Assembly: GCA_003858585.1 (NCBI GenBank)
Contig: RQZE01000008.1
Coordinates: forward strand, 45,544-77,543
DNA from: Erysipelotrichaceae bacterium OH741_COT-311
GTDB taxonomy: Bacteria > Bacillota_I > Bacilli_A > Erysipelotrichales > Erysipelotrichaceae
Length of the DNA stretch: 32,000 nucleotides
Direction of reading: 5' to 3'
The notes under the pieces were generated by a model that was not told the DNA's origin, ran no database searches, and was given only the letters and a program-made list of their open reading frames with translations. The position numbers and the translations under genes were made by a program. Position 1 is the first letter of the stretch. Each line of letters opens with the position of its first letter. This document shows positions 1-29,249 of the stretch, piece after piece.

Positions 1-2709
<2,709 letters not shown>

Positions 2710-2713
<4 letters not shown>

Positions 2714-2919
2714 CGATCTTTTACAATTTGATATGTACTTCCTTCTATTACAACAATATCCCCATGATACAACTTACGTCCACGACGATCTTCTTTTGCA
2801 TTATTTACAGTGATGTTTAGTTGTTTTACCATACATTTAGCTTGACCGCCACTTTGGATATAATCCGTTAATTTTAATAATTGTCCAAGGGTAATATATT
2901 CACTTGTAATATGAATCAT
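2710..2919 (-). CDS. yaaA: Small S4-domain RNA-binding protein (YaaA-like)
   Basis: 69-aa ORF with a 4-nt overlap with recF. It occupies the conserved dnaN-yaaA-recF position, and ITLGQLLKL...GGQAK is S4-like. Confidence 0.85.
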
Positions 2920-2992
2920 AATATCAATTTCCTTTTTTATACTAGATTATTATATCATAGTTTAATGTAATGTAGGTACCTACATATAAAAT

Positions 2993-3023
2993 AAAAAAAG
3001 CGCTTATTTTCAAAATAAACGCT
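2993..3023 (-). terminator. Rho-independent terminator after dnaN
   Basis: Inverted repeat agcgcttatttt / aaaataaacgct (2999-3010 / 3012-3023, one mismatch). On the minus strand it is followed by the T-run encoded by the plus-strand A-run 2993-2999. Confidence 0.55.
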
Positions 3024-3034
3024 ATATTCTAACA

Positions 3035-4159
3035 TTAGTTATAACTTCTTACCGGTAATACTAACTGAATAATACTTTCATCAACTAAAGAATTAATAAT
3101 AAACTGCTTCATTTCTCCACTGAAGTTAATCTTAACACGGGCATTTCCTAAAGCACGTAAAGCTTCAATGACATAACGACCGCTAAATGATAACTCAATC
3201 GGTTCTCCTTGATAGATAGCTCCATCTAATAATTCTTCTGATGATCCTACTTCTTGACTTCTCGATGAAACAATGACTTCTTCCGGACTTGCGGTTAATT
3301 TAATAATACTGATTCCTTCATTTTTAATGAAAGAAGCACGGTCAATCGCTTTTAATAATTCATAACCATCTACCTCTAAGAAACGATTAAAGTCTTTTAA
3401 AATCAAACGTTCTGCATCCGGATAATCTTCATTGATTAAACGAGTTTGAATGATGGTAGTATCAATAAAGAATTGTGCTTTTTTATTTGATACTGAAACT
3501 TGAATGTCTTTTTCTTCATTTAATGATTTTAAAACTTCATTTAAACTCTTTGCCGGAATTGTAATATTAAAAGTATTTGGTGTATCCAAATCTACCGTTT
3601 TTAATGCTAAACGATAGCTATCGGTAGCAATACATTTTAATTCATTACCGGAAGCTTTAAAATTTACTCCTGTTAAAGCAGGACGTGTTTCTTTATCTGA
3701 TGTTGCGAAAGTAGTTTGATTGATAATATCAACTAACGTTTTAGATGGCAAGGTAAAAGATTGTTCACATACGGTAAAATCAATTAATGGATAATCCGTA
3801 CTTCGAATACCATTGATATTAAATTCAGCATGATCACCACTGATTTTTGTTAATGAACCATCTACAATTTCAATCGTAATTTCACTGCTTTCAATCTTAC
3901 GAACAATTTCCATGATATATCTTGATTCAATAACAATACTACCTACTTCATTAACAATTAAGTTTAATTGTTCATTAGTATCATTGGATAATCTTGTTTG
4001 TATTGAAATATTAGAATCGGAACCTGTTAAAATTAATTCATTGTCTTTTACATCGATTTTGATACCTGTTAAAGAAGGTAATGGAGAATTATGAGAAACT
4101 GCACCTGCCACAATTGTAAGCGCATTGTAAAATGCTTTTTTTGAAACAATAAAATTCAT
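3035..4159 (-). CDS. dnaN: DNA polymerase III beta sliding clamp
   Basis: 374-aa ORF directly downstream of dnaA with the typical three-domain length. N-terminus MNFIVSKKAFYNALTIVAGAVS...PLPSLTGIKI and a C-terminal ...LVLPVRSYN-type ending. Confidence 0.95.
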   Translation of the reverse strand: MNFIVSKKAFYNALTIVAGAVSHNSPLPSLTGIKIDVKDNELILTGSDSNISIQTRLSNDTNEQLNLIVNEVGSIVIESRYIMEIVRKIESSEITIEIVDGSLTKISGDHAEFNINGIRSTDYPLIDFTVCEQSFTLPSKTLVDIINQTTFATSDKETRPALTGVNFKASGNELKCIATDSYRLALKTVDLDTPNTFNITIPAKSLNEVLKSLNEEKDIQVSVSNKKAQFFIDTTIIQTRLINEDYPDAERLILKDFNRFLEVDGYELLKAIDRASFIKNEGISIIKLTASPEEVIVSSRSQEVGSSEELLDGAIYQGEPIELSFSGRYVIEALRALGNARVKINFSGEMKQFIINSLVDESIIQLVLPVRSYN

Positions 4160-4299
4160 AGCGTTACTCCTTTTTATTTTTTATAAAGATTAAATACTAT
4201 TAGGACTGTGGATACTGTGTATAAGTTATAAAAGTCCTTATATACTAAAACTATTCTATCAAATTTTTATGTTAATTAAAAGTGAATAATTGTGGATAA
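4160..4299. other. oriC, dnaA-dnaN intergenic half (DnaA boxes plus AT-rich candidate unwinding region)
   Basis: Read on the dnaA-sense strand: a perfect TTATCCACA (complement of 4291-4299, abutting the dnaA stop) and GTATCCACA (complement of 4207-4215). These are followed by the very AT-rich stretch 4165-4206 just upstream of the dnaN RBS. Confidence 0.7.
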
Positions 4300-5649
4300 T
4301 TATACCTTGATAAGATGTTCAATCTCCATAATAACTTTTTGAAATAATGGATTCTCTTTGATCTGTTTCTCAACTTTTTCACAGGCATTCATTACTGTTG
4401 AATGATCACGTTTTCCGAATTCATCCCCTATTTTTAAATATGGCAAATCTAAATGTTTACGTGATAAATACATAGCAATATGGCGTGCTGTGGCTACATT
4501 TTTCGTGCGTACCTTAGATGTAAGTTGCTGTTTTGTTAAACCATAGTAATCACAGATAATCTTTTTTATAAAGTTAATGTTTAATTCCGTCTTTGTTTCC
4601 ACAACTTGTCCTTTAAAAGCATCCATTGCCATGGCTAAATCAATTTTATTACGCACACCTTTAAAATTAATGGAATAGAATAATAAACGAGTTAAAGCTC
4701 CTTCTAATGAACGAACATCCTTAGAGAAATTGGTTGCGATATAGGCTAAGGTATCTTCAGTAACGGTTTGTTTTAAATCTGTGTTATTGGTAAGTTTTGA
4801 TTTTAAAATATTAATACTTGTTTCAAACTCCGGAGATTCAATATTTACATTTAAGCCAGAATTAAAACGTGAAATAATACGATCTTCAAGTCCTTGGATT
4901 TCACTAGGAATGCAATCACTTGTTAAACAGATTTGTTTACGGTTATTTACAAGTTCATTAAACACACTAAAAAAGATTTCATGTGTCTTTTCTTTTCCGG
5001 CAATAAATTGAATGTCATCTACTAAAAGAAGGTCTAAATCATAGAGTTCTTTTTTAAATTCATCAAGTTTATTGGCTTTTGAGGATTTAACTACACAGTC
5101 AACAAATTCTAAACCGGAGATTAATCCAATCTTTTTATCTGGAAACATCTTTTTTACATGATTGCCAATGGCATTGAGTAAGTGTGTTTTTCCAAGACCT
5201 GAATTACCATAGATAAACAATGGATTGTAAGTGGTACCTGGATTATTTGCACATGTAAAAGCTGCAACCTGACTTTGTACATTGGAATTACCGATGACGA
5301 AATTTTCAAATGTATAATCACTTTTTAATTTATTTTTTAGGAAGTATGTTTTTACTTCGTTTGATTTTTGAATGCCAAAATGTTCAAAATATTGATTTTT
5401 AATAAATACTTCACAGTGTATTGTTCCATTTACAATGCGACTGATGTGATCGTTAATACTTGCTAAATAGTTATTAACAATCGCTAAACCCATATTATTT
5501 TCAACGATGATAATGGCTTTATTGTTATTGATGCTGTGGATATATGAAGTTTGCAAGTATTGTAGTGAATACGAATCATTGATCTCAAGGTCTAATAATT
5601 CTGTTGTTTTATTCCAAATATCCAGCAGGTATCTCTCATTTGTAACCAT
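4300..5649 (-). CDS. dnaA: Chromosomal replication initiator protein DnaA
   Basis: 449-aa ORF with AAA+ Walker A GNSGLGKTHLL, Walker B LLLVDDIQF and a C-terminal DnaA-box-binding HTH (VATARHIAMYLSRK...GDEFGKRDHSTV). The RBS is gggggg. Confidence 0.97.
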   Translation of the reverse strand: MVTNERYLLDIWNKTTELLDLEINDSYSLQYLQTSYIHSINNNKAIIIVENNMGLAIVNNYLASINDHISRIVNGTIHCEVFIKNQYFEHFGIQKSNEVKTYFLKNKLKSDYTFENFVIGNSNVQSQVAAFTCANNPGTTYNPLFIYGNSGLGKTHLLNAIGNHVKKMFPDKKIGLISGLEFVDCVVKSSKANKLDEFKKELYDLDLLLVDDIQFIAGKEKTHEIFFSVFNELVNNRKQICLTSDCIPSEIQGLEDRIISRFNSGLNVNIESPEFETSINILKSKLTNNTDLKQTVTEDTLAYIATNFSKDVRSLEGALTRLLFYSINFKGVRNKIDLAMAMDAFKGQVVETKTELNINFIKKIICDYYGLTKQQLTSKVRTKNVATARHIAMYLSRKHLDLPYLKIGDEFGKRDHSTVMNACEKVEKQIKENPLFQKVIMEIEHLIKV

Positions 5650-5735
5650 ATAGATTCCCCCCAGTACAACTATAATACATCATATTTATGGACTTGTATG
5701 ATGAAAATAAATGTAAAAAAGTTTCACACAGTAAA

Positions 5736-5965
5736 TGTGGATAAAATAAGACTATAAAATCAATATTTTATATAGTTATCCACAATTATCCACAACTTTT
5801 GAAAAGTGTAAATCTTGTGGATAAATAAATCACAATCACATAATGTGTGGATTACGTGCATAAAATACAGGGTGTGAAAAACTATAAACAACTTATCCAC
5901 CTAAGAAAAAACGATAGATGAGCAATTTTTTGTAGAAATGAATACTATCCACATTCTGTGGAAAA
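5736..5965. promoter_or_regulatory. oriC, dnaA-upstream DnaA-box cluster
   Basis: Four perfect TTATCCACA boxes: 5776-5784 and 5786-5794 forward, 5736-5744 and 5816-5824 reverse. Four boxes carry one mismatch: 5846-5854, 5893-5901, 5945-5953 and 5957-5965. Confidence 0.9.
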
Positions 5966-6003
5966 AAGTAAAAAAGGGATGTTTATAAGTTGTGTATAAG
6001 TAG

Positions 6004-6012
6004 TGGTATAAT
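6004..6012 (+). promoter_or_regulatory. Extended -10 promoter element (TGGTATAAT) for the VanY-like gene
   Basis: TGnTATAAT match lying 23 nt upstream of the ATG at 6035. The RBS aaagaggt follows it. Confidence 0.5.
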
Positions 6013-6034
6013 GTAGAAGATAAAGAGGTAAATT

Positions 6035-6787
6035 ATGAAAAAAGGAATGATTTTATTTATGGTAAGTATCTTAGTGGCTTGTACGTCAAATATAAAGGAA
6101 GAAACAACCATGCCTAAGGAAGAAACAATAACGACAATGACAACAACAATACAAACAACCGGTGAAACGACAACTACACAAGAAATCATTGAAACAACAA
6201 AAGCTATGCAAAGTGAAAAGGATATTGATGATTACAATAGTATCTATGTCATCATTAATAAACAAAGACCATTGCCGGAAAATTATGAACCAAGTGATTT
6301 AGTGATACCCAATGTGAGTTTGATGAAAGAATTGTATTTACGTAAGGAAGCAGCAAAAGCAATTGAAGAAATGTTTGAAGCAGCACTCAATGATGGAATA
6401 GAATTAAAAATTGGTAGTGGCTATCGTTCTTATGCATATCAAAGTCGTTTATATAGTAATTATGCAAAGCGTGATGGAGAAGAGGCGGCATCCCGTTATA
6501 GTTCTAAGCCGGGTCAATCGGAACATCAAACAGGTTTGGTGGTCGATCTTGCCGCAAGCAATGAGGTATGCTATTTAGAACAGTGTTTTGAAGATACAAA
6601 GGAAGCACAATGGCTATTTGAACATAGTTATAAATATGGGTTTGTTCTTCGTTATTTAAAAGATAAAGAAGACATTACGGGTTATATGTATGAACCATGG
6701 CATTATCGTTATATCGGAAAAGAAGAAGCTAAGAAGGTCTATGAAAGTGGATTAACGTTAGAGGAGTATTTTGGTTTAGTAGAATAA
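6035..6787 (+). CDS. D-alanyl-D-alanine carboxypeptidase lipoprotein, peptidase M15B (VanY-like)
   Basis: Lipobox ILVAC-T followed by a Thr/Glu-rich low-complexity linker. Zn-ligand motifs SEHQTGLVVD (H-x6-D) and EPWHYRY, plus SGYRSYAYQ. Confidence 0.88.
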   Translation: MKKGMILFMVSILVACTSNIKEETTMPKEETITTMTTTIQTTGETTTTQEIIETTKAMQSEKDIDDYNSIYVIINKQRPLPENYEPSDLVIPNVSLMKELYLRKEAAKAIEEMFEAALNDGIELKIGSGYRSYAYQSRLYSNYAKRDGEEAASRYSSKPGQSEHQTGLVVDLAASNEVCYLEQCFEDTKEAQWLFEHSYKYGFVLRYLKDKEDITGYMYEPWHYRYIGKEEAKKVYESGLTLEEYFGLVE

Positions 6788-6791
6788 TTCC

Positions 6792-6819
6792 CTGTTGATT
6801 ATTTATTAACAGAATTTTT
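6792..6819 (+). terminator. Putative terminator after the VanY-like gene
   Basis: Hairpin ctgttgat/attaacag (8 bp including one G-U pair, 5-nt loop) at 6792-6812, then ttttt at 6815-6819. Confidence 0.45.
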
Positions 6820-6934
6820 AATTGTATAAAAAAAGTTGAATTTTTAAAAATGAATTTTTATTCATTCTTTATCCAACTATTTATTTTATAAGATTTGTCT
6901 TGTTTTTTTATATTTTTGTATCAAATTAGATAAC

Positions 6935-6963
6935 TTGACAATTGTGTTATATTAATATAGAAT
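6935..6963 (+). promoter_or_regulatory. Sigma-A-type promoter of rpmH-rnpA
   Basis: TTGACA (6935-6940), a 17-nt spacer, then TAGAAT (6958-6963), about 50 nt upstream of the rpmH ATG. Confidence 0.55.
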
Positions 6964-7014
6964 AAAACAGCAATTGCTCATTATATTAAAAAATAGAACT
7001 GGAGGTGGCTCTTT

Positions 7015-7149
7015 ATGAAAAGAACTTATCAACCGAGCAAAAGAAAACACCAAAAAGTCCACGGTTTCAGAGCTAGAATGAAGACGGTCGGAGGCAGAAA
7101 AGTATTGGCACGTCGTCGCTTCAAAGGCAGAAAGACATTGTCGGCATAA
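7015..7149 (+). CDS. rpmH: 50S ribosomal protein L34
   Basis: Too short for the ORF track. My translation is [44 protein letters not shown] (44 aa), a near-consensus L34. The RBS ggaggt is at 7001-7006. Confidence 0.97.
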
Positions 7150-7150
7150 A

Positions 7151-7173
7151 AGTCACCGTAAGGTGGCTTTTTT
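7151..7173 (+). terminator. Hairpin plus T6 between rpmH and rnpA (terminator/attenuator)
   Basis: Stem agtcacc / ggtggct (7 bp, one G-U pair) with loop gtaa, followed by tttttt (7168-7173). It ends 10 nt before the rnpA ATG. Confidence 0.6.
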
Positions 7174-7182
7174 CTACTTTTC

Positions 7183-7515
7183 ATGAAAAAAAAGTATCGA
7201 ATTAAAAAAAATGAAGAGTTCCAGGCTATTATTCATTTAAGACATTCTGTTGTTAATAAGGCGTATGTCCTTTATTATTCTAAGAAAAAAGAGGAACATG
7301 GTCGATTAGGAATAAGTGTTTCAAAGAAGATGGGCAAAGCGAATGTTCGTAATAAAATAAAAAGACAAGTCCGTATGATGGTTCAAGATATTATCAAGCA
7401 AGGGTTGTTGATGATGGATGTGATTTTGATTGTTCGTGCTCCATATTTACAACAATCCTATATAGATAATAAAAAAGACTTGGAAAGCTTAATTAAAAAA
7501 GTTAAAATAAAGTAG
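7183..7515 (+). CDS. rnpA: Ribonuclease P protein component
   Basis: 110-aa basic ORF immediately after rpmH. It carries the RNase P protein signature region GISVSKKMGKANVRNKIKRQVR. Confidence 0.93.
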   Translation: MKKKYRIKKNEEFQAIIHLRHSVVNKAYVLYYSKKKEEHGRLGISVSKKMGKANVRNKIKRQVRMMVQDIIKQGLLMMDVILIVRAPYLQQSYIDNKKDLESLIKKVKIK

Positions 7516-7537
7516 TATTTTATAAGGAGAGAAGAAG

Positions 7538-8395
7538 ATGAATAAAAGAAAGATTATTCTTTTGTTAGTAGTGTTAGGTAGCTTATTCCTACTTTCAGGA
7601 TGTAGTGTTCCGCAAGAAAATGGAAAAATAATATTAATTACAGATCAAACAACATTTAGCTATATGATTAATAATGAAGGTTGGTTCAGTGCATTATTTG
7701 TATACCCATTGTCAAAAGCCATTAACTTTTTAGCACCACTTACAAATGTGGCGATTGCGATTGCAATTGTAACGATTATCATTAATGGTTTAATTTTACT
7801 GTTTACATTTAAAGCAACTATGGATCAACAAAAGATGCAGGCGTTACAACCTGAAATCTTAAAGATTCAAAAGAAATATGAAGGAAAAACTGATCAACAA
7901 GCTAAGATGATGATGGGTCAAGAGATGCAAGCTGTTTATAATAAACATAATGTAAATCCTCTTGGTTCCATTGCAGTTATGTTTTTACAATTTCCGGTGA
8001 TTATTGCGATGTATCAATCTGTACAACGTGCAGAGTCAGTAAGTACAGGTACATTCTTAGGCTTATCTTTAGAACAAACTCCACTTAAGGGAATTCAAGG
8101 TGGTCAATACATGTATTTAGTAATCTTTATTGTAATGATTTTAACACAATTCATTGCGATGAAATTACCTCAATATTTATCAGAAAAGCGTGCTCGTGAA
8201 GTGGCTGAAAAAGCAGGTCGTCGTTATGAAAAACAAAAATTACCTGGTGGTAATATGATGTATGGTATGATGGCAATTATTTCTGTCATTTCCATCAGTT
8301 GGCCAGCAGCGATGACGATTTATTGGATTATTTCTTCGGTTGTTAATGCAGGTAAGGCTGTCTTGGTTCAACATTTAATTAATAAGAATAGTTAA
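7538..8395 (+). CDS. yidC: Membrane protein insertase YidC/SpoIIIJ family (lipoprotein)
   Basis: Lipobox LLSGC-S, multiple TM helices and a basic C-terminus. It sits in the conserved rnpA-yidC-jag position. Confidence 0.93.
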   Translation: MNKRKIILLLVVLGSLFLLSGCSVPQENGKIILITDQTTFSYMINNEGWFSALFVYPLSKAINFLAPLTNVAIAIAIVTIIINGLILLFTFKATMDQQKMQALQPEILKIQKKYEGKTDQQAKMMMGQEMQAVYNKHNVNPLGSIAVMFLQFPVIIAMYQSVQRAESVSTGTFLGLSLEQTPLKGIQGGQYMYLVIFIVMILTQFIAMKLPQYLSEKRAREVAEKAGRRYEKQKLPGGNMMYGMMAIISVISISWPAAMTIYWIISSVVNAGKAVLVQHLINKNS

Positions 8396-8405
8396 GGAGG
8401 TTACC

Positions 8406-9017
8406 ATGGAAAAATTCACAGGAAAAACATTGGATGATGTTTTAGCAAGTATTGCAAGAGAAAAGAATTGTGCATTAGAAGATATTACGTATAATATCTT
8501 AGAAGAAAAAAAGGGAATTTTAGGAATTGGTAGTTCAGTAACTGTTGAGGCATATTGTAAAGATGATATTAAAGAATTTATCTTTAATTATTTAGGTGAA
8601 TTTTTTATGGAAATCAATCAACCGGTATCGGTTGAAATCATTGAAGAACCTAGTGGTTATAAAGTATTATTGGATTCAGAAAACAATGCGATTATTATTG
8701 GTAAAGCCGGTCAAACGTTACATGCGATTAATTTAGTTGTACGTAGTGCAGTAAATTCAACGTTTAAGAAGCGTGTTTCTATCTTAATTGATGTGAATAA
8801 TTATAAAGAAGATCGTTATGCTAAGGTGAAACAATTAGCAAAGCGTGTTGCTCGTAATGTGTTAAAGACAAAGATGGATGCTTCATTAGATCCAATGCCA
8901 AATGATGAGCGTAAAGTGATTCACCAACTTCTTACAGATTATAAGAATATTAAAACAGAATCTGAAGGAGAAGGTAGTAAACGTCATTTAGTGATTAAAT
9001 ATGTAGAACAAAAATAA
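8406..9017 (+). CDS. jag: RNA-binding protein Jag/KhpB (Jag_N-KH-R3H)
   Basis: 203-aa ORF after yidC. KH-like IIGKAGQTLHAINLV and an R3H motif DPMPNDERKVIHQLL. Confidence 0.9.
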   Translation: MEKFTGKTLDDVLASIAREKNCALEDITYNILEEKKGILGIGSSVTVEAYCKDDIKEFIFNYLGEFFMEINQPVSVEIIEEPSGYKVLLDSENNAIIIGKAGQTLHAINLVVRSAVNSTFKKRVSILIDVNNYKEDRYAKVKQLAKRVARNVLKTKMDASLDPMPNDERKVIHQLLTDYKNIKTESEGEGSKRHLVIKYVEQK

Positions 9018-19644: not shown

Positions 19645-21228
19645 ATGGATAACAATCAAATTAAAACAAATGAAAGTATTCAACGTTCAGAATTACATCG
19701 AAAAATATGGGCAATTGCAGATAATGTACGTGGAACTGTAGATGGATGGGATTTTAAACAATACATACTAGGTATTTTATTCTATCGTTTTATTTCTGAA
19801 AATATGAAAGAATATTTTAATAAGGCAGAACATGAAGCAGGAGATTTGAAGTTTGATTATGCACGTATTTCTGATGAAGAAGCAGAACAATACTTCAAAC
19901 CCAATACAGTAGAAGATAAGGGTTATTTCATTCTTCCAAGTCAATTATTTGAAAACGTTGTAGAAAAAGCGAGAGTGAATTCAAATTTAAATGTTGAATT
20001 AGATACAATTTTTAAAAATATTGAATCAAGTGCAGTTGGTTTTGCATCTGAAGATGATATTAAAGGATTATTTGAAGATATTGATGTGCGTAGCAGTCGT
20101 TTAGGAAACACAGTTGAAGAAAAAAATAAGCGTTTAGCTGATATTTTAATTGGTATTTCAGAAATAAATTTTGGTCGCTTTGAAGAAAATCAAATTGATG
20201 CTTTCGGGGATGCGTATGAATATTTAATTTCTAACTATGCAAGTAATGCAGGAAAATCGGGTGGAGAGTACTTTACTCCACAAACCGTTTCTAAATTATT
20301 AGCTAGATTAGTTATGGAAGGAAAGAAAAAAATTAATAAAGTATATGATCCAACATGTGGCAGTGGTTCTTTACTTTTACAAATGAAAAAACAATTCGAA
20401 GAACATATTATCGAAGATGGTTTTTTTGGTCAAGAAAGTAATATGACAAACTATAACTTATCAAGAATGAATATGTTTTTACATAATATAAACTATAATA
20501 AGTTTTCAATTAAACATGGTGATACCTTATTAAAACCAATGCATAATGATGAAAAACCATTTGATGCAATTGTATCAAATCCTCCTTATTCAATTAAATG
20601 GGTAGGAGATGGAGATCCTACATTAATTAATGATGTACGTTTTGCTCCAGCTGGAAAACTTGCACCAAAAAAAAAAGCAGATTATGCATTTATTATGCAT
20701 TCCTTAAATTATTTATCTAGTCAAGGACGAGCAGCAATTGTTTGTTTCCCCGGAATCTTTTATCGAAAGAGTGCTGAAAAAACTATAAGACAATATCTAG
20801 TGGATAATAACTTTATTGATTGTGTTATTCAGTTACCAGAAAACTTATTCTTTGGAACTTCCATTGCAACTTGTGTTTTAGTTATGTCAAAAAATAAAAC
20901 TGAAAATAAAATATTATTTATTGATGCAAGTAAAGAATTTAAAAAAGAAACAAACAATTATATTTTAGAAGAAAAAAATATTGAAGTAATCGTAGAGGGA
21001 TTTAAAAACAGATCAGATAAACAATATTTTTCAAGATATGTAGATAAAAGTGAAATAGAAGAAAACGATTATAATTTATCTGTTTCAACATATGTAGAAA
21101 AAGAAGATACAAGAGAAGTTATTGATATTAAAGCTTTAAATAAAGAAATCGAAGAAACTGTAAGAAAAATTAATGAATTAAGAGATTCTATTAATGAAAT
21201 AGTAAAGGAGTTAGAAACAGATGCTTAA
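19645..21228 (+). CDS. hsdM: Type I restriction-modification system, DNA methyltransferase subunit
   Basis: 527 aa with an HsdM N-terminal domain, SAM motif [13 protein letters not shown] and catalytic motif [10 protein letters not shown]. hsdS and hsdR follow. Confidence 0.96.
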
Positions 21229-21294: not shown

Positions 21295-23235
21295 ATGAAA
21301 AAAATAGATAATTTATTACAAAATGAACATGTTGAATGGAAGAAATTAGGAGAAGTATGTGAGATTTTGAATGGGTATTCTTTTAAAAGTGAAAGCTATT
21401 CCTTTAGTGGAATACGTGTAATTAGAATTTCTGATGTTCAAAATGGATTTATTTCCAATAAAGAACTCAAGTATTATTCGTCAAATAATATCAAAGAAAT
21501 AGAAAGGTATTTATTATATGAAGATGATTTAGTAATTTCTTTAACTGGTAATGTAGGTCGCGTAGCACTAATTGATAAGTCTATTTTGCCTGCGGCTCTT
21601 AACCAAAGGGTTGCTTGTATTCGTTGTCCTAATCAAATAACATCAAAATATTTATTTCATTTTCTCAATCAAAATTTATTTGAAAAGATGGCAATTCAAA
21701 ATTCAAGTGGAGGAGGTCAAAAAAATTTAAGTACAATTTGGTTGAATAATTACGAAATCCCAATTCCTTCGTTAAAAACTCAAGAAAAAATAGTAAAAAC
21801 ACTTGACAAATTTACAAATTGTGTTACTGAACTACAGGCTGAACTACAGGCAAGAAATAAACAATATAATTACTATAGAGATAAATTACTAAGTGAAGAA
21901 TATCTAGGCAAAATCTCAAAGAAAATAGATAAGTTGGAAAATAAAAAGTATCAATTAAGAAGTACAACTCTTGGTGACGTAGGAGAATTCACAAGAGGGA
22001 ATGGATTACAAAAAAGTGATTTTACTTATAAAGGAAAACCAGCAATTCATTACGGTCAAATATATACCAAGTATGGATTTTCCACAGATAAAACAATTTC
22101 ATATGTAAGTGATGCGACTTATTCTAAATTAAGAAAAGCAAAAACAAATGATATTTTGATAGCTACAACCTCTGAAAACATAGAGGATGTTGGTAAAAGT
22201 ACAGTTTGGCTTGGAAAGGAAGAAATAGGATTTTCAGGAGATATGTATAGCTATAGCACAAATGAAAATTCTAAGTATATTGCTTATTATTTTCAAACTG
22301 AAGAATTTCATAAACAAAAAGCTAGAAAAATATCTGGAACAAAATTAATTCGTATTCACGGAGATGATATGAAAAAATTTTGCATAACTCTTCCATCACT
22401 AGAAATTCAAGAAAAAATTGTGGAAATTTTAGATAAATTTCAATCTATGCTTTCCGATACTCAAGGACTGTTGCCAAAAGAAATTGAGCAAAGAAAAAAA
22501 CAATATGAATATTATCGTGAAAAACTATTGACATTCAATACGATATGTGATAGCAAGCAAGCAAGCAAGATAATACCTACTAATTATTTTACTATATTAA
22601 AAGAAGCAGCAAATATTGTAGATGTAGAACTATATGCAGTTAAATGGAAAAGCCTTGGTGAAATAGGGAAATTTGAAAATGGAACAGGTATGCCAAAAAC
22701 AATGTTTAGTATGTCTGAAACTATTGGTGCAATACATTATGGTCATATTTATACAAAATACAACATGTTTGTTTACAATCCGATTGTTAATGTGAGCACA
22801 GAAAATGCAAAGAAATTAAAAAAAGTAAATCAAGGAGATTTAGTTATTGCTAAAACTTCTGAAAATGTAGAAGATATTATGAAAACAGTGGCATATTTAG
22901 GTGAAGGTCAGGTGGTAACCGGAGGACATGCTGCAATATTTAGCCATCAAGAAAATCCAAAATATTTGTCTTATGTGTTTAATGGTGCAAGTTATCTTAT
23001 AAGTCAAAAAAATAAATTAGCAAAAGGAGTTAAAGTGATAGAATTATCTATCTCTGATATGGAAAAAATAAAAATTCCATTACCTTCTCTTCCTGTTCAA
23101 GAATACATTGTTTCTATTTTGGATAAGTTTGACATGCTTGTAAATGATATTTCTCAAGGGCTTCCAAAAGAAATTGAATTAAGAAAAAAACAATATGAAT
23201 ATTATAGAGAAAAACTATTTAGCTTTAATAAATGA
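21295..23235 (+). CDS. hsdS: Type I R-M specificity subunit with three target-recognition domains (TRD1-CR1-TRD2-CR2-linker-TRD3-CR3)
   Basis: 646 aa, against roughly 400-450 for a typical HsdS. There are three TRD-like blocks (aa ~12-157, ~222-366, ~449-596). Each is followed by a conserved helix: PSLKTQEKIV...ARNKQYNYYRDKLL, PSLEIQEKIV...QRKKQYEYYREKLL and PSLPVQEYIV...LRKKQYEYYREKLF. Confidence 0.9.
   Translation: MKKIDNLLQNEHVEWKKLGEVCEILNGYSFKSESYSFSGIRVIRISDVQNGFISNKELKYYSSNNIKEIERYLLYEDDLVISLTGNVGRVALIDKSILPAALNQRVACIRCPNQITSKYLFHFLNQNLFEKMAIQNSSGGGQKNLSTIWLNNYEIPIPSLKTQEKIVKTLDKFTNCVTELQAELQARNKQYNYYRDKLLSEEYLGKISKKIDKLENKKYQLRSTTLGDVGEFTRGNGLQKSDFTYKGKPAIHYGQIYTKYGFSTDKTISYVSDATYSKLRKAKTNDILIATTSENIEDVGKSTVWLGKEEIGFSGDMYSYSTNENSKYIAYYFQTEEFHKQKARKISGTKLIRIHGDDMKKFCITLPSLEIQEKIVEILDKFQSMLSDTQGLLPKEIEQRKKQYEYYREKLLTFNTICDSKQASKIIPTNYFTILKEAANIVDVELYAVKWKSLGEIGKFENGTGMPKTMFSMSETIGAIHYGHIYTKYNMFVYNPIVNVSTENAKKLKKVNQGDLVIAKTSENVEDIMKTVAYLGEGQVVTGGHAAIFSHQENPKYLSYVFNGASYLISQKNKLAKGVKVIELSISDMEKIKIPLPSLPVQEYIVSILDKFDMLVNDISQGLPKEIELRKKQYEYYREKLFSFNK
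21829..21852 (+). repeat. 12-bp tandem duplication in the hsdS central conserved region
   Basis: gaactacaggct (21829-21840) followed by gaactacaggca (21841-21852), encoding ELQA-ELQA within ...VTELQAELQARNKQY... Confidence 0.9.
22474..22529 (+). repeat. Direct repeat copy 1 (hsdS CR2)
   Basis: ccaaaagaaattga...agaaaaaaacaatatgaatattat...aaaaactatt. Blocks of 14, 24 and 10 nt are identical to 23164-23219, exactly 690 bp (230 codons) downstream. Confidence 0.9.
22552..22569 (+). repeat. Tetranucleotide microsatellite (GCAA)4.5 inside hsdS
   Basis: agcaagcaagcaagcaag, encoding SKQASK. It lies 13 nt after the end of conserved region 2. Confidence 0.95.
23164..23219 (+). repeat. Direct repeat copy 2 (hsdS CR3)
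   Basis: See copy 1. The two copies are in frame with each other. Confidence 0.9.
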
Positions 23236-23251: not shown

Positions 23252-26200
23252 GTGGAAGAGGTTAAAAGTCTGTATTGTACATCTTCAATTGCTGAGATGA
23301 CAAATGGGATTATTTTAGCTAATTATGAAAAAGTTTTAAGTGTACAAGAGTCGTATCAAACAGAAGCACAGTTGGAGAGTTATTTAATTGATAATTTAGA
23401 ATCACAAGGCTATGAAAGGTTTGTAGCACATACTAGTGAAGATTTATATAATAACTTAAAGATTCAAATGGAGCGTTTAAATAAAGTAACATTTACTTCT
23501 TCAGAGTGGAATCGCTTTTTAAATGAATTTTTGGATTGTCCAAATGATGGAATGATTGAAAAGACACGAAAAATTCAAGAAAATCACTTGTATGATTTTA
23601 TTTTTGATGATGGTAGCCTTGTTAATCTTAAAATCATAGATAAGCTAAATATACACAATAACTTCTTACAGGTTACAAATCAAATTGTACAATTTGGTAA
23701 ACATAAAAATCGTTATGATGTAACGATATTAATTAATGGATTACCTTTGGTTCATATTGAATTAAAGAGTCGTGGTGTAAGATTGCGTGAAGCATTTGAT
23801 CAAATACATCGATATAGCAAAGAGAGTTTTAATGCAAACCATTCTTTATACAAATATGTACAAATTTTTGTCATATCTAATGGTACGCATACACGTTATT
23901 TTGCAAATACAACTGCTCAAAATAAAAATAATTATGAGTTTACATGTGAATGGGCAGATGCAAAAAACAAAGCCATTAAAGATTTAGAAGATTTTACTAA
24001 AACATTTTTTGAAAAACGTGTATTACTAGAGGTATTAACAAAATATTGTGTATTTGATGTTAAGGATACATTATTAATATTACGACCTTATCAAATTGCA
24101 GCAACTGAGCGTATTTTATGGAAAATTAAATCAAGTTATGAAAGTAAAAGATCGGGAAAAGTAGAAGCTGGGGGATATATTTGGCATACAACAGGTTCTG
24201 GGAAGACATTAACTTCTTTTAAAACTGCCCGCTTAGCAACATCTCTATCGATTATCGATAAAGTATTTTTTGTAGTTGATCGTAAAGACTTGGACTATCA
24301 AACTATGAAAGAATATCAAAGATATCAAAAAGATAGTGTAAATGGTAGTAAAGATACAAAAGCGCTAAAAAAAGTTATAGAGCTAAATGATAATAAAATT
24401 ATTGTGACTACAATTCAAAAGTTAAATGAATTTGTAAAGAGAAATCAAAATCATGAAATATATCAAAAACATTGTGTTTTAATTTTTGATGAATGTCACC
24501 GTTCTCAATTTGGAGAAGCACAAAAAAATATAAAAAAAGCGTTTAAAAAATATTATCAGTTTGGTTTTACAGGAACGCCAATTTTTCCAGAAAATGCGAT
24601 TGGAACAGATACAACATCAAGTATTTTTGGTGCACAGCTACATAGTTATGTTATTACTGATGCGATTCGTGATGGTAAGGTTTTGAAGTTCAAAGTAGAT
24701 TATCATAATGTAAATGCTAAGTTTAAATCCGAAGAAAAAGAAACAGATTTAATGAAATTAAAGAGCTATGAAAAAAAGGTTTTAGCTTTACCAGAAAGAA
24801 TTTCAAGTATTACAAAACATATTTTAAAGGTATTTGATGATAAAACACGTCGTAATGAGTATTATGATTTGAAAAAGCGTCGATTAAATGGGTTTAATGC
24901 AATGTTTGCGGTTTCTAGTATAGAAGCAGCTAAATTATATTATGAAGAGTTTCAAAGACAACAAAAAGAACTTCCAGAAGAAAAAAGGCTTAAGGTAGCT
25001 ACAATTTATAGCTTTTCTGCAAATGAAGAGCAAAATGCAATAGGAGATATTGTAGAAGAAACATTTGAGCCTACTGCACTTGATTCTTCTTCAAAAGAAT
25101 TTTTAAGTAAAGTGATTAAAGATTATAATGGATACTTTAAAACAAATTATTCTCTTGATGGAAATGAATTTCAAAACTACTACAAAGATTTATCGGCAAG
25201 AGTTGCGAATCGTGAAGTTGATCTTTTAATTGTGGTTGGAATGTTTCTGACAGGATTTAATGCAGAAACGTTAAATACGTTGTTTGTAGATAAGAATTTA
25301 AGATATCATGGTCTAATACAAGCCTTTTCAAGAACTAATCGTATTTTAAATAAAGTGAAAACTTTTGGTAATATTGTATGTTTTCGTGATTTAGAAAAAG
25401 CAACTCAAGAAGCAATTAAAGTGTTTGGTGATGAAAATAGTGTAAATATTATTTTAGAGAAAAGTTATACAGAATATATTAATGGATTTGAAGATCAAGA
25501 AAGTGGAAGTGCATTTAAAGGTTATGAAAAAATATGTAAAGAAATCCTTGCCAAATTTCCTGATCCAACAGAAATTATTTTAGATGAAGACAAAAAAGAG
25601 TTTGTAAAATTGTTTGGTGAGCTTTTGAAAGCAGAGAATATTCTTAAGAATTTTGATGAATTTGAAAGTTATGATAATGGTATTTCTGAACGTCAAATGC
25701 AAGATATGAAGAGTGTTTATGTAGATATTCGAGAAGAAATATTAAATCAAAAACAACAAGAGAAAAACGAAAATGCAGGCATTGATTTTTCTGACATCGA
25801 GTTTCAAATAGATTTATTAAAAACAGATGAAATAAATTTAGATTATATTTTAGCTTTAATTTATGAAAAATCAAAAGAGCATAAAGATATTGAAGTATTG
25901 AAGTATGAAATTAGTCGCATCATACGTTCAAGTTTAGAAACGAGAGCAAAAGAAAAGCTTGTTATGGACTTTATTAATCATACTCGCATTTCAGAGCTTA
26001 AAACAAGCAAAGATATTATTAAATCATTCTATGAGTTTGCGAATAGAGAAAAGAAAAAAGAAGTCGAAAGATTAATTCAAGAAGAACATTTAAAAGAAGA
26101 AGCGGTTCGTTTTATTGAAAAGTCAATTGAAAAAGGATGGGTAGAAAATGCAGGCATTGAGCTGGATAGTGTTTTACCTCCTGTATCAAGAAGACAAGGT

Positions 26201-26272
26201 GCACGTGAAGCGAAAAAGCAACAAGTACTAGATAAAATTCGTAAGTTGGTAGAAGTATTTGTGGGGGTATAA
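23252..26272 (+). CDS. hsdR: Type I R-M restriction endonuclease/translocase subunit
   Basis: 1006 aa with a GTG start at 23252 and RBS aaggaggg. N-terminal PD-(D/E)xK motif (YDVTILINGLPLVHIELK) and SF2 motifs HTTGSGKT and FDECHRSQ. Confidence 0.95.
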   Translation: MEEVKSLYCTSSIAEMTNGIILANYEKVLSVQESYQTEAQLESYLIDNLESQGYERFVAHTSEDLYNNLKIQMERLNKVTFTSSEWNRFLNEFLDCPNDGMIEKTRKIQENHLYDFIFDDGSLVNLKIIDKLNIHNNFLQVTNQIVQFGKHKNRYDVTILINGLPLVHIELKSRGVRLREAFDQIHRYSKESFNANHSLYKYVQIFVISNGTHTRYFANTTAQNKNNYEFTCEWADAKNKAIKDLEDFTKTFFEKRVLLEVLTKYCVFDVKDTLLILRPYQIAATERILWKIKSSYESKRSGKVEAGGYIWHTTGSGKTLTSFKTARLATSLSIIDKVFFVVDRKDLDYQTMKEYQRYQKDSVNGSKDTKALKKVIELNDNKIIVTTIQKLNEFVKRNQNHEIYQKHCVLIFDECHRSQFGEAQKNIKKAFKKYYQFGFTGTPIFPENAIGTDTTSSIFGAQLHSYVITDAIRDGKVLKFKVDYHNVNAKFKSEEKETDLMKLKSYEKKVLALPERISSITKHILKVFDDKTRRNEYYDLKKRRLNGFNAMFAVSSIEAAKLYYEEFQRQQKELPEEKRLKVATIYSFSANEEQNAIGDIVEETFEPTALDSSSKEFLSKVIKDYNGYFKTNYSLDGNEFQNYYKDLSARVANREVDLLIVVGMFLTGFNAETLNTLFVDKNLRYHGLIQAFSRTNRILNKVKTFGNIVCFRDLEKATQEAIKVFGDENSVNIILEKSYTEYINGFEDQESGSAFKGYEKICKEILAKFPDPTEIILDEDKKEFVKLFGELLKAENILKNFDEFESYDNGISERQMQDMKSVYVDIREEILNQKQQEKNENAGIDFSDIEFQIDLLKTDEINLDYILALIYEKSKEHKDIEVLKYEISRIIRSSLETRAKEKLVMDFINHTRISELKTSKDIIKSFYEFANREKKKEVERLIQEEHLKEEAVRFIEKSIEKGWVENAGIELDSVLPPVSRRQGAREAKKQQVLDKIRKLVEVFVGV

Positions 26273-26290
26273 AAATTAGTATATATTTAG

Positions 26291-27592
26291 ATGAGGGGAG
26301 ATAATAATACTGTGAAAAAGCATATATTGTTGAAGTATCTAGATGAATACTTTGAAGTTAACATAACTTTAGATTCAAAGTATACTATTGGAGATAATAT
26401 TAATAAAATTTGCACACTTTCAGAATATCAAGAAATAGTTCAAAATAATTTGATTTTTTGGGAAAAAAACTTTAAAAATGAAACAATTAGTTATTTTTCG
26501 TTTTGGGAAGAAAAACAAAAAAAATTAAATCAAATATATGGTATGATGCAACAAATAAAAAAAGAAGAATTTATATCTAAATTAAATGAAATTTGTGATT
26601 TTCTTAGTGTTGGACGGTTTAACGATAGTGGAATAGAAAATAAAATAAAAAAACAAATAAATATCAAAATAGAATCTCTTTTGATTGGGTGCTGTCAATT
26701 TGAAAGGTGTATACATTTTATAAAATTAATATATGATAATGATGATAAAAGTCTAAGAACTGAACAAATTTTACACAATTATATATATTTAATAAAGAAT
26801 CCTTATATGATAGGGTCATATTTTTCATCAAACTACAAAGAACAAAGTTTTCCAGCTTATGTGTTGTTATCAGAAAATATAAAATCGGAAAATAAAAATT
26901 GGACTTTGATTTCAAAAAATATTGAAGAAGATTTGGCTCATGAAAAAGAAAATTTGGAGAAAAGTTTTCAAGAAAAGTATAGCGATGCAATTCAAGAAAT
27001 ACACGATATAGAAAAAGAAATAAGAGAATTTTCAGAAAAATATCATGAGGAAAAAAATAAGAGACTGAAAGAATTAGAAGAACAAAATCAAAAATTAGTA
27101 AATAATTTATCAGTTTTAGAGACAACATATAAAGAAAAACTAAAATTAGAAGCTCCAGAACAACTATGGATTGAAAAAGCTAAACAGCAGAAAAAATCAG
27201 TAGTAATTTGGCTTTTAATTACTATCTGTACCGCTATTTTGTTGATTTACTCATTGGGTTGGCTCATTCCAACAATCTATGAATCTAATTTGAAAGAGAA
27301 TATAATTTTAAATAAAAGTTTTTTCTTGATTGCAATTATAACATTTTTTGTCTATATCATTAGGATAGAAGTTAAAGTTTTGCTTTCTTCAAGGCACCTT
27401 CAGTTAGTATATGAAGAAAAAGCTGCATTAACTAGATTTTATCAAGCATTAATATATGCTGGAAATCATATAGATGAAAATCAACTACTTTTAATTTATA
27501 GTATGTTATTTAAGGATACGGATACTGGGTTGGTGAAATCAAGTGATGGCACAGATATTGAAAGTATTGTTTCCACAATAATTCGAAAATAA
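26291..27592 (+). CDS. Uncharacterised coiled-coil / two-TM protein appended to the hsd operon
   Basis: 433-aa ORF 18 nt after the hsdR stop with no intervening hairpin. N-terminal ~200 aa have no motif I recognise; aa ~208-300 form a K/E-rich coiled coil. TM helices are SVVIWLLITICTAILLIYSLGWLIP and FFLIAIITFFVYIIRIEVKVLL, followed by a ~65-aa tail. The start is ambiguous: ATG 26291 lacks an SD, and the in-frame GTG 26312 follows gagggga. Confidence 0.75.
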   Translation: MRGDNNTVKKHILLKYLDEYFEVNITLDSKYTIGDNINKICTLSEYQEIVQNNLIFWEKNFKNETISYFSFWEEKQKKLNQIYGMMQQIKKEEFISKLNEICDFLSVGRFNDSGIENKIKKQINIKIESLLIGCCQFERCIHFIKLIYDNDDKSLRTEQILHNYIYLIKNPYMIGSYFSSNYKEQSFPAYVLLSENIKSENKNWTLISKNIEEDLAHEKENLEKSFQEKYSDAIQEIHDIEKEIREFSEKYHEEKNKRLKELEEQNQKLVNNLSVLETTYKEKLKLEAPEQLWIEKAKQQKKSVVIWLLITICTAILLIYSLGWLIPTIYESNLKENIILNKSFFLIAIITFFVYIIRIEVKVLLSSRHLQLVYEEKAALTRFYQALIYAGNHIDENQLLLIYSMLFKDTDTGLVKSSDGTDIESIVSTIIRK

Positions 27593-27638
27593 AATAGTTT
27601 ATAATCGTTGAATAATTACTTACAATTCTTAAATATAA

Positions 27639-27668
27639 AAAGAAGTTTAGCTTTAACTAAACTTCTTT
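27639..27668. terminator. Bidirectional terminator shared by the 433-aa ORF and the NERD gene
   Basis: 12-bp stem aaagaagtttag / ctaaacttcttt with loop ctttaa. It overlaps the last codons and stop of the NERD gene. Confidence 0.65.
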
Positions 27669-28252
27669 CTGTTTTCATAAGGTAACAGCTCATCTACAAC
27701 ACCTTTTAGTAAAGGGTGATAGTCGTATATGAATTTTTCTATTTGATTAAATTTAATGACATTCCTTATATCTGTTTTCAGCCTTGTTCGATTGGCAAAA
27801 ACAACCACCGAAACCAATGAGTCATGATCAACACCTGTAAAGGCTGAAATAGTCTTTGTATGTGCATAGTTTTGACGTAGTGGATTTTGAAAGCGATACT
27901 TTTGTTTACCAAGATAATGTGTCCATTGACTACTAAACGATGTGCCATACACACTTCCTGCATAGTTTTTAATTTCTGCAACAAACGTACTTCCGTTAAA
28001 TTCAAACACACAATCTATTTCAATTTCTTTTTCATCATTTTCCAACACTACATTCATTACAATATCTTCAACCCCCATAGCAACTAATTGATTATAAAAA
28101 TGAATTTCGGCACGTTTTCCTTTGTTTAAAAAGTAGATATAAAATGGTGTTTGATATCTAATATAATAAGGAGTTTTATGATAATTTAATCTCTGAAACC
28201 AAAAAAATGCAAAAACAAATAAAATAATGAGTAACATAATAATCCCCTTCAC
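27653..28252 (-). CDS. Membrane-anchored NERD-domain (nuclease-related, PD-(D/E)xK-like) protein
   Basis: 199 aa with an N-terminal TM helix (IIMLLIILFVFAFFWF). NERD-like core GKRAE...EIDCVFEFNGSTFVAEIKNYAGSVYG...W...QNPLRQNYAH. Starts at GTG 28252 (RBS gagga) or ATG 28237. Confidence 0.8.
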   Translation of the reverse strand: MKGIIMLLIILFVFAFFWFQRLNYHKTPYYIRYQTPFYIYFLNKGKRAEIHFYNQLVAMGVEDIVMNVVLENDEKEIEIDCVFEFNGSTFVAEIKNYAGSVYGTSFSSQWTHYLGKQKYRFQNPLRQNYAHTKTISAFTGVDHDSLVSVVVFANRTRLKTDIRNVIKFNQIEKFIYDYHPLLKGVVDELLPYENRKKFS

Positions 28253-28334
28253 ATTCCATCCTCAATAAGACTATTATATAATAAAACTAAAGAAGGCAAT
28301 AAAGGATTTTAAAACCCTTTTAGAAAGGTCATCT

Positions 28335-29249
28335 ATGAAAACACTCTTAATTGGAAATGGATTAAATCGTTGTCTAAATACAAACATAGACTGGGGAAAC
28401 CTTTTAAACAGCATGAAAGAACACTATCATCTAAAAGATAAAATACATCCTGACATCAGTTTTCCTATGCAGTTTGAATGCATTGCCAATCATGTAAGTA
28501 AGCAAAAACACCACAAAAACGTATATACTCTTCTTAAAGAAGAAATCGCATCTAAGGTAAAGGAAATCAAAGCCATAGATGATAAGGAAATGGTACCACA
28601 TAGTTACTTTTTAAAAGACAAACGATATAAACGCATTCTAACAACCAACTACGACTATGTAATAGAAGACTACTTAAAACATACCTACAACCTTGCTGAT
28701 GAAGACCTTACATCCAATCAAAAAGAAATTAAGTATAGTTTAAGACGTTATCGTAAACTTCAAGATACTTACATCTTTCATATTCATGGAGAAGCCGATA
28801 AACCTGAAACCTTATGTTTGGGCTATGAACATTATGCAGGCACTATTCAATATCTACGTGGTAAACTTGCGTTGAAGGAAACATCACCACTATTGCATGT
28901 TTTAAAAAATAAACAAGTTACTCCAGACATCATTGAAACTTATTCTTGGGCAATTTTATTCTTGATTGATGATATTGAGATTATAGGATTAGGACTGGAT
29001 GAATCCGAGATTGATTTATGGTGGCTGATTAGTTATCGTGCTTATTTAAAGAATATGCATCCAGAAGCTTCTAGGTATATTCATAACACCATTACTTATC
29101 ATGAAATAATTAGTGAACATAGTGATTTACAATATATTAAAAAACGTAAAAGTCTGTTTGACAGTATGGACATTCAATACACAATGCATGAAGTAAAACA
29201 TTCTAATTATCTAGAAGGCTACTACGACATTGCAAAGACAATCGAATAA
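28335..29249 (+). CDS. AbiH-like / SIR2_2-like (DHS-like NAD-binding fold) protein
   Basis: 304 aa with an N-terminal Gly loop LLIGNGLNR, then ILTTNYD (N105), IFHIHGE (H151) and IIGLGLDESEIDLWW. This is the ordered motif set shared by the AbiH and SIR2_2 families. It has no SLOG, TIR or other extra domain. Confidence 0.7.
   Translation: MKTLLIGNGLNRCLNTNIDWGNLLNSMKEHYHLKDKIHPDISFPMQFECIANHVSKQKHHKNVYTLLKEEIASKVKEIKAIDDKEMVPHSYFLKDKRYKRILTTNYDYVIEDYLKHTYNLADEDLTSNQKEIKYSLRRYRKLQDTYIFHIHGEADKPETLCLGYEHYAGTIQYLRGKLALKETSPLLHVLKNKQVTPDIIETYSWAILFLIDDIEIIGLGLDESEIDLWWLISYRAYLKNMHPEASRYIHNTITYHEIISEHSDLQYIKKRKSLFDSMDIQYTMHEVKHSNYLEGYYDIAKTIE

Follow-up and report, generated by a model that had tools for sequence, protein, structure and literature searches.

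Extended phase-variable hsdS genes, which encode type I restriction-modification (R-M) specificity subunits (HsdS) with three target-recognition domains (TRDs; 1, 2a and 2b) in a single gene, were described by Atack et al. in Mannheimia haemolytica and in Fusobacterium nucleatum (FASEB J 2019/2020; PMC7383803). In M. haemolytica, the second TRD is separated from the third by a G[n] tract; G[12] furnishes a three-TRD protein with the motif CAACN5TC, and G[10/11] a two-TRD protein with the motif CAACN4GT (PMC7383803). In F. nucleatum, an AAGAC[n] tract separates TRD2a from TRD2b, and nine variants of TRD1, eight of TRD2a and two of TRD2b are recorded (PMC7383803). The authors speculated that TRD2b displaces TRD2a and urged that the distribution of such genes be surveyed (PMC7383803). 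Full-text searching retrieved no other description of the class, and the post-2019 literature that we searched cites three-TRD HsdS proteins and adds no mechanism or structure. Here, we analyzed a 32,000 nucleotide stretch of a canine oral Erysipelotrichaceae bacterium, OH741_COT-311 (GCA_003858585.1, contig RQZE01000008.1, positions 45,544 to 77,543; hereafter, the window), and the hsdS gene that it encodes at 21295..23235 (plus strand, as for all features below unless noted). Like the genes of Atack et al., this gene possesses three TRDs with a repeat of a unit length that is not a multiple of three between the second and the third, an in-frame state that encodes a three-TRD protein, an out-of-frame state that encodes a complete two-TRD protein followed by a silent third TRD, and TRD alleles that vary between strains. 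The repeat unit (AGCA), the short tract (4.5 units), and the canine oral Erysipelotrichaceae host set it apart. We interpret it as a phase-variable extended hsdS in a type IC-like hsdM-hsdS-hsdR system, at a probability of roughly 0.78.

In the type IC enzymes EcoR124I and EcoR124II, a four-residue TAEL repeat in the central conserved region (CR) of HsdS sets the spacer of the target at N6 or N7, and a copy-variable four-residue repeat at this position is a type IC trait. The window system resembles EcoR124I in that its HsdR possesses an EcoR124_C domain and its first conserved region possesses a 12-nt/4-aa repeat similar to TAEL, and the EcoR124I HsdS (7bst_A) is the solved HsdS closest in sequence to the window protein, at 26% identity. 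The EcoR124I HsdS, in contrast, has two TRDs and no frame-shifting repeat. Repeat-truncated hsdS genes are known from NgoAV of Neisseria gonorrhoeae and from the GCAA[n] genes of Haemophilus parasuis and Pseudomonas aeruginosa (PMC7383803). There too, slippage of an inter-TRD repeat alters the length of the S subunit and hence its specificity, and GCAA is AGCA in another register; however, the repeat lies between TRD1 and TRD2 and the short form, a half-subunit, has to dimerize, whereas the short form encoded in the window is a complete HsdS. Several specificities by stochastic hsdS change are likewise generated at inverting or recombining loci (SpnD39III, Mycoplasma, Bacteroides fragilis; PMC7394358, PMC7672463), which rely on additional silent copies of hsdS, on inverted repeats and, in many cases, on a recombinase. 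No such element adjoins the window hsdS. Lastly, Staphylococcus xylosus (PMC10030836) and the BlihIA system of Bacillus licheniformis (PMC12429846) also make more than two TRDs available to one HsdM/HsdR set, through full-length and truncated HsdS proteins, but these are separate genes without a repeat-controlled fusion.

Three TRD-CR units and an AGCA tract in one gene

The window hsdS encodes a 646-residue specificity subunit of a type I R-M system, from ATG to TAA with no internal stop in the open reading frame, and is flanked by hsdM and hsdR. Three TRD-CR units are read through in this in-frame (ON) state. The Pfam family Methylase_S (PF01420) matches the protein in three separate stretches (E 6.1e-55), and an AlphaFold2 model (mean predicted local distance difference test score, pLDDT, of 85.7) contains three folded TRDs and three long helices. 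A Foldseek search of this model against the PDB retrieved the solved HsdS structures 1yf2, 1ydx, 3okg and 7bst (E 1e-14 to 4e-19). TRD1 spans 21328..21765 (residues 12–157; best Pfam stretch 12–185, and a fold in the model) and is followed by CR1, a central-type conserved helix at 21766..21894 (residues 158–200; modeled helix 160–198). TRD2 (21958..22392, residues 222–366), delimited by Pfam, self-comparison and the model, precedes CR2, a C-terminal-type conserved helix at 22393..22536 (residues 367–414, ending in KQYEYYREKLLTF; modeled helices 369–387 and 394–413), with which an ordinary HsdS would be complete. Beyond it lie a linker helix at 22579..22617 (residues 429–441, YFTILKEAANIVD; helical in the model, with the family consensus YFxxLKEAAxIVGV), TRD3 at 22639..23082 (residues 449–596, placed by the same three approaches as TRD2), and CR3, a second C-terminal-type conserved helix that together with the stop codon occupies 23083..23235 (residues 597–646; modeled helices 599–616 and 622–643).

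Comparison of the protein with itself demonstrated that unit 2 (residues 216–430) and unit 3 (residues 431–646) are 44% identical (E 5e-55), with unit 1 more distant from unit 2 (26%, E 1e-16) and from unit 3 (32%, E 6e-17). At the DNA level, direct repeats at 21841, 22480 and 23170 correspond to the three conserved-helix segments, and CR2 and CR3 are 87% identical across 67 nt. A reading of this DNA from sequence alone (hereafter, the sequence-only reading) had described three TRD-CR units in one frame with TRD3 as a diverged relative of TRD2. The uninterrupted frame, the three Methylase_S stretches and the modeled folds bear out the first point, and the 44% identity of TRD2 and TRD3 in the window allele bears out the second; both peptide pairs that it quoted fall within the alignment, and its domain boundaries were right to within a few residues. 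As an explanation, this description stood as far as the three TRDs went but overlooked the AGCA tract in the linker between CR2 and TRD3.

CR1 possesses a repeat of its own: a 12-nt direct repeat in 2.1 copies at 21827–21851, encoding TELQAELQ, as detected by Tandem Repeats Finder (TRF). Homologues carry one (13 proteins), two (56) or three (9) copies of the four-residue unit. In a metagenome scaffold (L088), a gap of Ns (~4880–4945) falls exactly within the CR1 repeat, which hints at a longer array.

Could the third TRD have been joined to an ordinary hsdS by an error of assembly or sequencing, with a downstream half-hsdS as the source? Assemblies are error-prone at repeat tracts. However, the independent Logan assembly of SRR9701139 encodes the identical 646-residue protein, the full-length architecture is common to more than 100 database clusters, and 14 reference genomes of other genera read three TRDs in frame; we regard an artefact as very improbable indeed. 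Searching 5.8 billion proteins gave 7630 matches at E <=1e-10, of which the best 120 were analyzed. Because 114 of these 120 are 590–672 residues long and align across 100% of the query, the three-TRD architecture, as judged from these sequences, is neither a chance event nor an assembly fusion.

The tract itself, (AGCA)4.5 at 22552..22569 (AGCAAGCAAGCAAGCAAG; TRF), encodes SKQASK in the CR2-TRD3 linker and is the proposed slippage switch. It is the only tetranucleotide repeat of at least three units in the 32 kb window, and ~1% of Markov-shuffled, composition-matched windows contain any repeat of at least four units. Simulating a gain or loss of one or two AGCA units ended the protein at 424–430 residues, with tails of KQAR or KQDNTY before the stop, and a change of three units kept the three-TRD frame. 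The simulated short product comprises a complete TRD1-CR1-TRD2-CR2, all of CR2 included, and is thus an ordinary two-TRD HsdS. Immediately downstream of the tract, the box ATAATACCTACTAA (22570..22583) contains TAA in both alternative frames, at 22571–22573 (frame +1) and 22581–22583 (frame +2), so that out-of-frame translation ends 2–6 codons later. The repeat-encoded peptide, residues 417–423, is the sole HsdS segment with a pLDDT below 50; its predicted disorder fits a spacer that tolerates changes in length. Separate translation of TRD3 in the OFF state was considered and found unlikely, as no start codon precedes Met466 in its frame, and this codon falls within the domain and lacks a clear ribosome-binding site.

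A model for the locus emerges. The (AGCA)n tract, situated in a flexible linker, would separate a complete two-TRD HsdS (TRD1-CR1-TRD2-CR2) from an appended TRD3-CR3, and slipped-strand mispairing during replication would alter n. Values of n that keep the frame, such as the 4.5 units in the window, would furnish the 646-residue three-TRD HsdS; the other two frames would run into the built-in TAA soon after the tract and furnish an ordinary two-TRD HsdS of ~425 residues, leaving TRD3 silent. The short and the long HsdS would join the same HsdM and HsdR with different bipartite targets, and a clonal population would thus carry two methylation and restriction specificities. At the level of sequence, every feature that defines the extended hsdS class of Atack et al. 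(PMC7383803) is present in the window gene: three TRDs in one frame, a repeat, of a unit length indivisible by three, that separates the second TRD from the third, tract length and frame that differ between strains, and an OFF state that is a complete two-TRD HsdS. The (AGCA)4.5 tract also passes the cut-off of at least three repeat units used by these authors (PMC7383803).

Tract length and reading frame in a sister strain and in related loci

A contig of a sister strain from another sample (L001) provides a natural OFF allele. Its lipase gene, hsdM, TRD1 and hsdR are 98–99% identical to those of the window (TRD1, 99% at the nucleotide level), and its tract is (AGCA)6.5, two units above the 4.5 of the window. 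Its HsdS (P0099) is a 402-residue protein with the TRD1 of the window and a C-terminus of DSKQASKQAR. Downstream, an intact TRD3-CR3 stays open across 223 codons of a different frame. L001 and the window carry different alleles of both TRD2 and TRD3, an unrelated TRD standing in place of the window TRD2, and the conserved helices and the linker are retained. P0099 and P0102 are natural two-TRD HsdS proteins from out-of-frame loci.

Among the 120 best homologues, nearly all possess a translated repeat in the linker that follows YYREKLLTF. Peptides with a four-residue period (SKQA, LPAC, THAR, RQTD, RTNE, RPTD and SQSV) reflect tetranucleotide units, STAQH in one to five copies a pentanucleotide, TH or ER a dinucleotide and KPQAASR a heptanucleotide; copy number varies among otherwise near-identical proteins. 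We then scanned genomes, one per species (80 loci), and used a hidden Markov model of residues 426–500, covering the linker helix and the start of TRD3, to pick 42 loci in which CR2, linker and TRD3 follow in order. These come from Peptoniphilus, Gemella, Veillonella, Lachnoanaerobaculum, Fusobacterium, Tissierella, Treponema, Lactobacillus, Eggerthia and other genera. In 41 of the 42, a repeat lies exactly between CR2 and the linker helix, with a unit of 1, 2, 4, 5, 7, 8 or 11 nt and never a multiple of three; the remaining locus (L059) has lost it. High copy numbers are found in Tissierella pigra, with (AC)25.5; in a genome of the Treponemataceae, with (CAGA)28.5; in Gemella, with (AGAC)14; and in a genome of the Veillonellaceae, with (AGCA)9.5. 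The AAGAC tract of F. nucleatum was sought in the fetched related loci and was not found there.

The reading frame is retained in 17 of the 42 loci and lost in 25; in the unbiased genome scan the split was 14 in frame to 24 out, near the 1:2 expected for a randomized frame. All 18 OFF loci that were scored keep TRD3-CR3 open for at least 200 codons, and in every repeat-bearing locus both wrong frames stop 0–7 codons past the repeat, most often through an ATAAT..CTAA/TAG arrangement on its 3′ side. Near-random frames, an open TRD3-CR3 in the OFF state and stops in both wrong frames are, on this comparative evidence, the marks of a contingency locus rather than of decaying pseudogenes. For the sequence-only reading, a frameshift or stop in the CR2-TRD3 interval would have meant two ordinary genes; the frameshift of the sister strain and of these 25 loci instead represents the OFF state.

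These observations bear on a second explanation, in which the three-TRD HsdS is constitutive, the AGCA tract is a leftover of an ancestral low-complexity flexible linker, and the gene is locked ON with one specificity. The modest 4.5 units in the window, the tracts of three to four units in several relatives, and the repeat-less L059 would all suit it. Yet the tract of the sister strain is exactly two units longer, which places an intact TRD3 out of frame, stops are conserved in both alternative frames right after the tract, and relatives with short tracts are found ON and OFF alike; a locked gene therefore appears unlikely to us. Shuffling by a recombinase or inverted repeats was also considered and rejected, as nearby extra hsdS copies, a recombinase and long inverted repeats were all searched for and none was found.

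Several points weigh against phase variation of an extended hsdS or against parts of it. The tract of the window strain is short, and three-unit tetranucleotide tracts switch at only ~1e-6 (rates quoted in PMC7383803); on this analogy, switching in the window strain may be slow. Within the species, the evidence on tract length rests on two strains, the window and L001; exact look-ups of the hsdM, lipase and DUF6161 proteins for further strains returned only the same Logan contig. With regard to the long form, the M. haemolytica motif pair fits replacement of either TRD1 or TRD2 by TRD3, because the orientation in which a motif is written is arbitrary. Lastly, the global geometry of the AlphaFold2 model is uninformative on helix pairing: the template modeling (TM) scores of the full-length monomer to solved HsdS structures (0.32–0.41) are matched by those of a two-TRD control (residues 1–424; 0.36–0.42), which is equally non-canonical.

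Two relatives displayed more elaborate repeats. In L086 (~2890–2900, and also in L087), a G8 run is present in the CR1-TRD2 linker in addition to (ACGC)4.5 in the CR2-TRD3 linker; the G8 splits hsdS into a 205-residue TRD1-CR1 product and a 436-residue TRD2-TRD3 product. Two slippage points can therefore be present in a single hsdS, the first of them with an NgoAV-like placement. In the locus of Filifactor villosus (L004, ~950–1020) the tract is compound: (TAGACAGA)6 precedes (CAGA)n, and the 8-nt unit places TAG stops in the reading frame. The tract has the appearance of a repeat that is degenerate or still evolving.

Possible pairing of three TRD-CR units in the long form

Clustering of the TRDs of 114 homologues, a sample biased towards the query, yielded 22, 8 and 13 allele clusters at the TRD1, TRD2 and TRD3 positions, with a few types occurring at more than one position. 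With many allele types at all three positions, TRD3 behaves as a specificity determinant. The sequence-only reading had raised the possibility of more than one specificity from a single gene, which we judge to be likely. On the proposed mechanism, the strain would switch within a culture and change its specificity.

How would the long form accommodate a third TRD? We favor an assembly, at about even odds, in which CR3 pairs with CR1 and TRD3 replaces TRD2, the TRD2-CR2 unit being looped out on the disordered repeat peptide. Two lines of evidence point this way: i) CR2 and CR3 are of the same helix type and of nearly the same sequence, and CR1 is of the distinct central type, and ii) the TRD2-repeat-TRD3 block recurs with many TRD1 alleles, the TRD2 type of the query being present in 72 proteins and its TRD3 type in 61, against 22 TRD1 clusters in the query-biased sample. 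The latter fits TRD2 and TRD3 as alternatives.

The same switch could also operate through another assembly, in which TRD3-CR3 pairs with TRD2-CR2, TRD3 replaces TRD1, and TRD1-CR1 is left dangling at the N-terminus. Chain topology favors it, as CR2 ends at the place that TRD1 occupies in a canonical HsdS. Once the repeat is subtracted, the CR2-TRD3 linker (~26 residues, helix 429–441) is similar to the CR1-TRD2 linker (~24 residues, helix 201–211), and TRD3 opens with the consensus VEWKxLGE, an N-terminal-type boundary like that of TRD1. The published motif change retains one half-site without specifying which TRD reads it (PMC7383803), which this arrangement would accommodate. It does, however, need two C-terminal-type helices (CR2 and CR3) to pair, with the 39-residue CR1 helix left exposed; the recurrence of the TRD2-repeat-TRD3 block with many TRD1 alleles favors alternation of TRD2 and TRD3 instead; and no natural genes lacking TRD1 were found. 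We retain this assembly as a possibility of limited weight. Three proteins with TRD2 and TRD3 only (P0020–P0022, 436–457 residues) were examined as candidate TRD1-less genes and proved to be artefacts, either of the G8 frameshift in the CR1-TRD2 linker (L086/L087) or of the scaffold gap in the CR1 repeat (L088).

A fused half-hsdS, one of the options raised by the sequence-only reading, would behave differently: TRD1 and TRD2 would form the core, and the TRD3-CR3 units of two molecules would dimerize into an extra symmetric specificity, such that ON cells would methylate two motifs. The long tether, predicted to be disordered, would permit such dimerization, and truncated HsdS halves of NgoAV and others dimerize into functional symmetric subunits (PMC7383803). 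The motif reported for the extended form of M. haemolytica, however, is not palindromic and has CAAC in common with that of the short form, rather than being the old motif plus a palindrome (PMC7383803), and we disfavor this arrangement as quite improbable.

Still more complex outcomes, which we consider doubtful, would have the three TRD-CR units compete, with ON cells containing two to three pairings (TRD1+TRD3, TRD2+TRD3, and residual TRD1+TRD2 or intermolecular TRD3+TRD3), or would have the long form recruit a third HsdM. We know of no structural documentation of competing pairings or of a third HsdM for any type I enzyme. Were competing pairings to occur, one gene with one repeat tract would encode at least three specificities.

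Genomic setting and significance of the family

The methyltransferase gene, hsdM (19645..21228), encodes a 527-residue type I N6-methyladenine methyltransferase subunit (Pfam N6_Mtase, E 7.7e-116, and HsdM_N) that matches RRC91924.1 exactly. Together with exact NCBI matches of Mfd and of a DUF2254 protein, this match assigns the window to OH741_COT-311. An A10 tract at 20667–20676 in this gene encodes PKKKA and is as long as is usually required of a slippage tract; at this position the sister strain reads AAAAAATTAT, and the tract is probably incidental in a 31% GC genome. The restriction gene, hsdR (23252..26272), encodes 1006 residues from a GTG start with the Pfam domains HSDR_N, SWI2_SNF2, T1R_D3-like and EcoR124_C (PF12008, E 6.8e-59), the last of which leads us to call the system type IC-like. 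The GTG lies 16 nt past the hsdS stop; the NCBI protein RRC91931.1 is 991 residues long, which may reflect a later start codon.

Upstream of hsdM lie lipase, divIC, mfd and pth genes and, further off, the rnpA-yidC-jag and dnaA-dnaN-recF origin cluster. In this origin region (1634–9017), the minus-strand genes recF, dnaN and dnaA are followed by the plus-strand genes rnpA, yidC and jag, and the R-M locus is ~15 kb from dnaA. Directly 3′ of hsdR (26291–29249) are genes for a DUF6161 protein (433 residues, predicted to be a membrane protein and rich in coiled coil), a NERD nuclease-related protein (minus strand) and a SIR2_2 protein, which together resemble a small defence island adjoining the R-M system. 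The sister contig contains, between the lipase gene and hsdM (L001 2412–4130), an extra gene that is absent from the window and encodes a 572-residue fused methyltransferase-specificity protein (N6_Mtase and Methylase_S). In L086 (2038–2307 and 4257–5296) and L088 (3323–4327 and 6391–7479), other genes are inserted among hsdM, hsdS and hsdR, namely RhuM, SocA_Panacea with a 142-residue partner, and an AAA_13 ATPase.

The class of three-TRD extended HsdS proteins has been known since 2019 (PMC7383803), and the window adds one organism to it. Our survey goes past the main text of that paper in how widely the family is distributed, in how varied the repeat units at a single position are and in the conservation of stops in both wrong frames; six other genera for which we searched are not named in that main text. 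The class extends beyond two pathogens and appears to comprise one homologous family, present in many Firmicutes, Negativicutes, Fusobacteria and spirochaetes that are host-associated; the M. haemolytica and F. nucleatum proteins were compared with it by architecture. At least 12 different repeat units occupy the same linker position across the family, next to a conserved linker helix. Such varied units at one position, conserved dual stops and near-random frames suggest, on sequence grounds, that switching has long been under selection. With its many natural ON/OFF pairs, the family lends itself to asking how a three-TRD S subunit fits a two-TRD complex, and for genetic work in oral and gut anaerobes it implies that the restriction barrier can differ among subclones.

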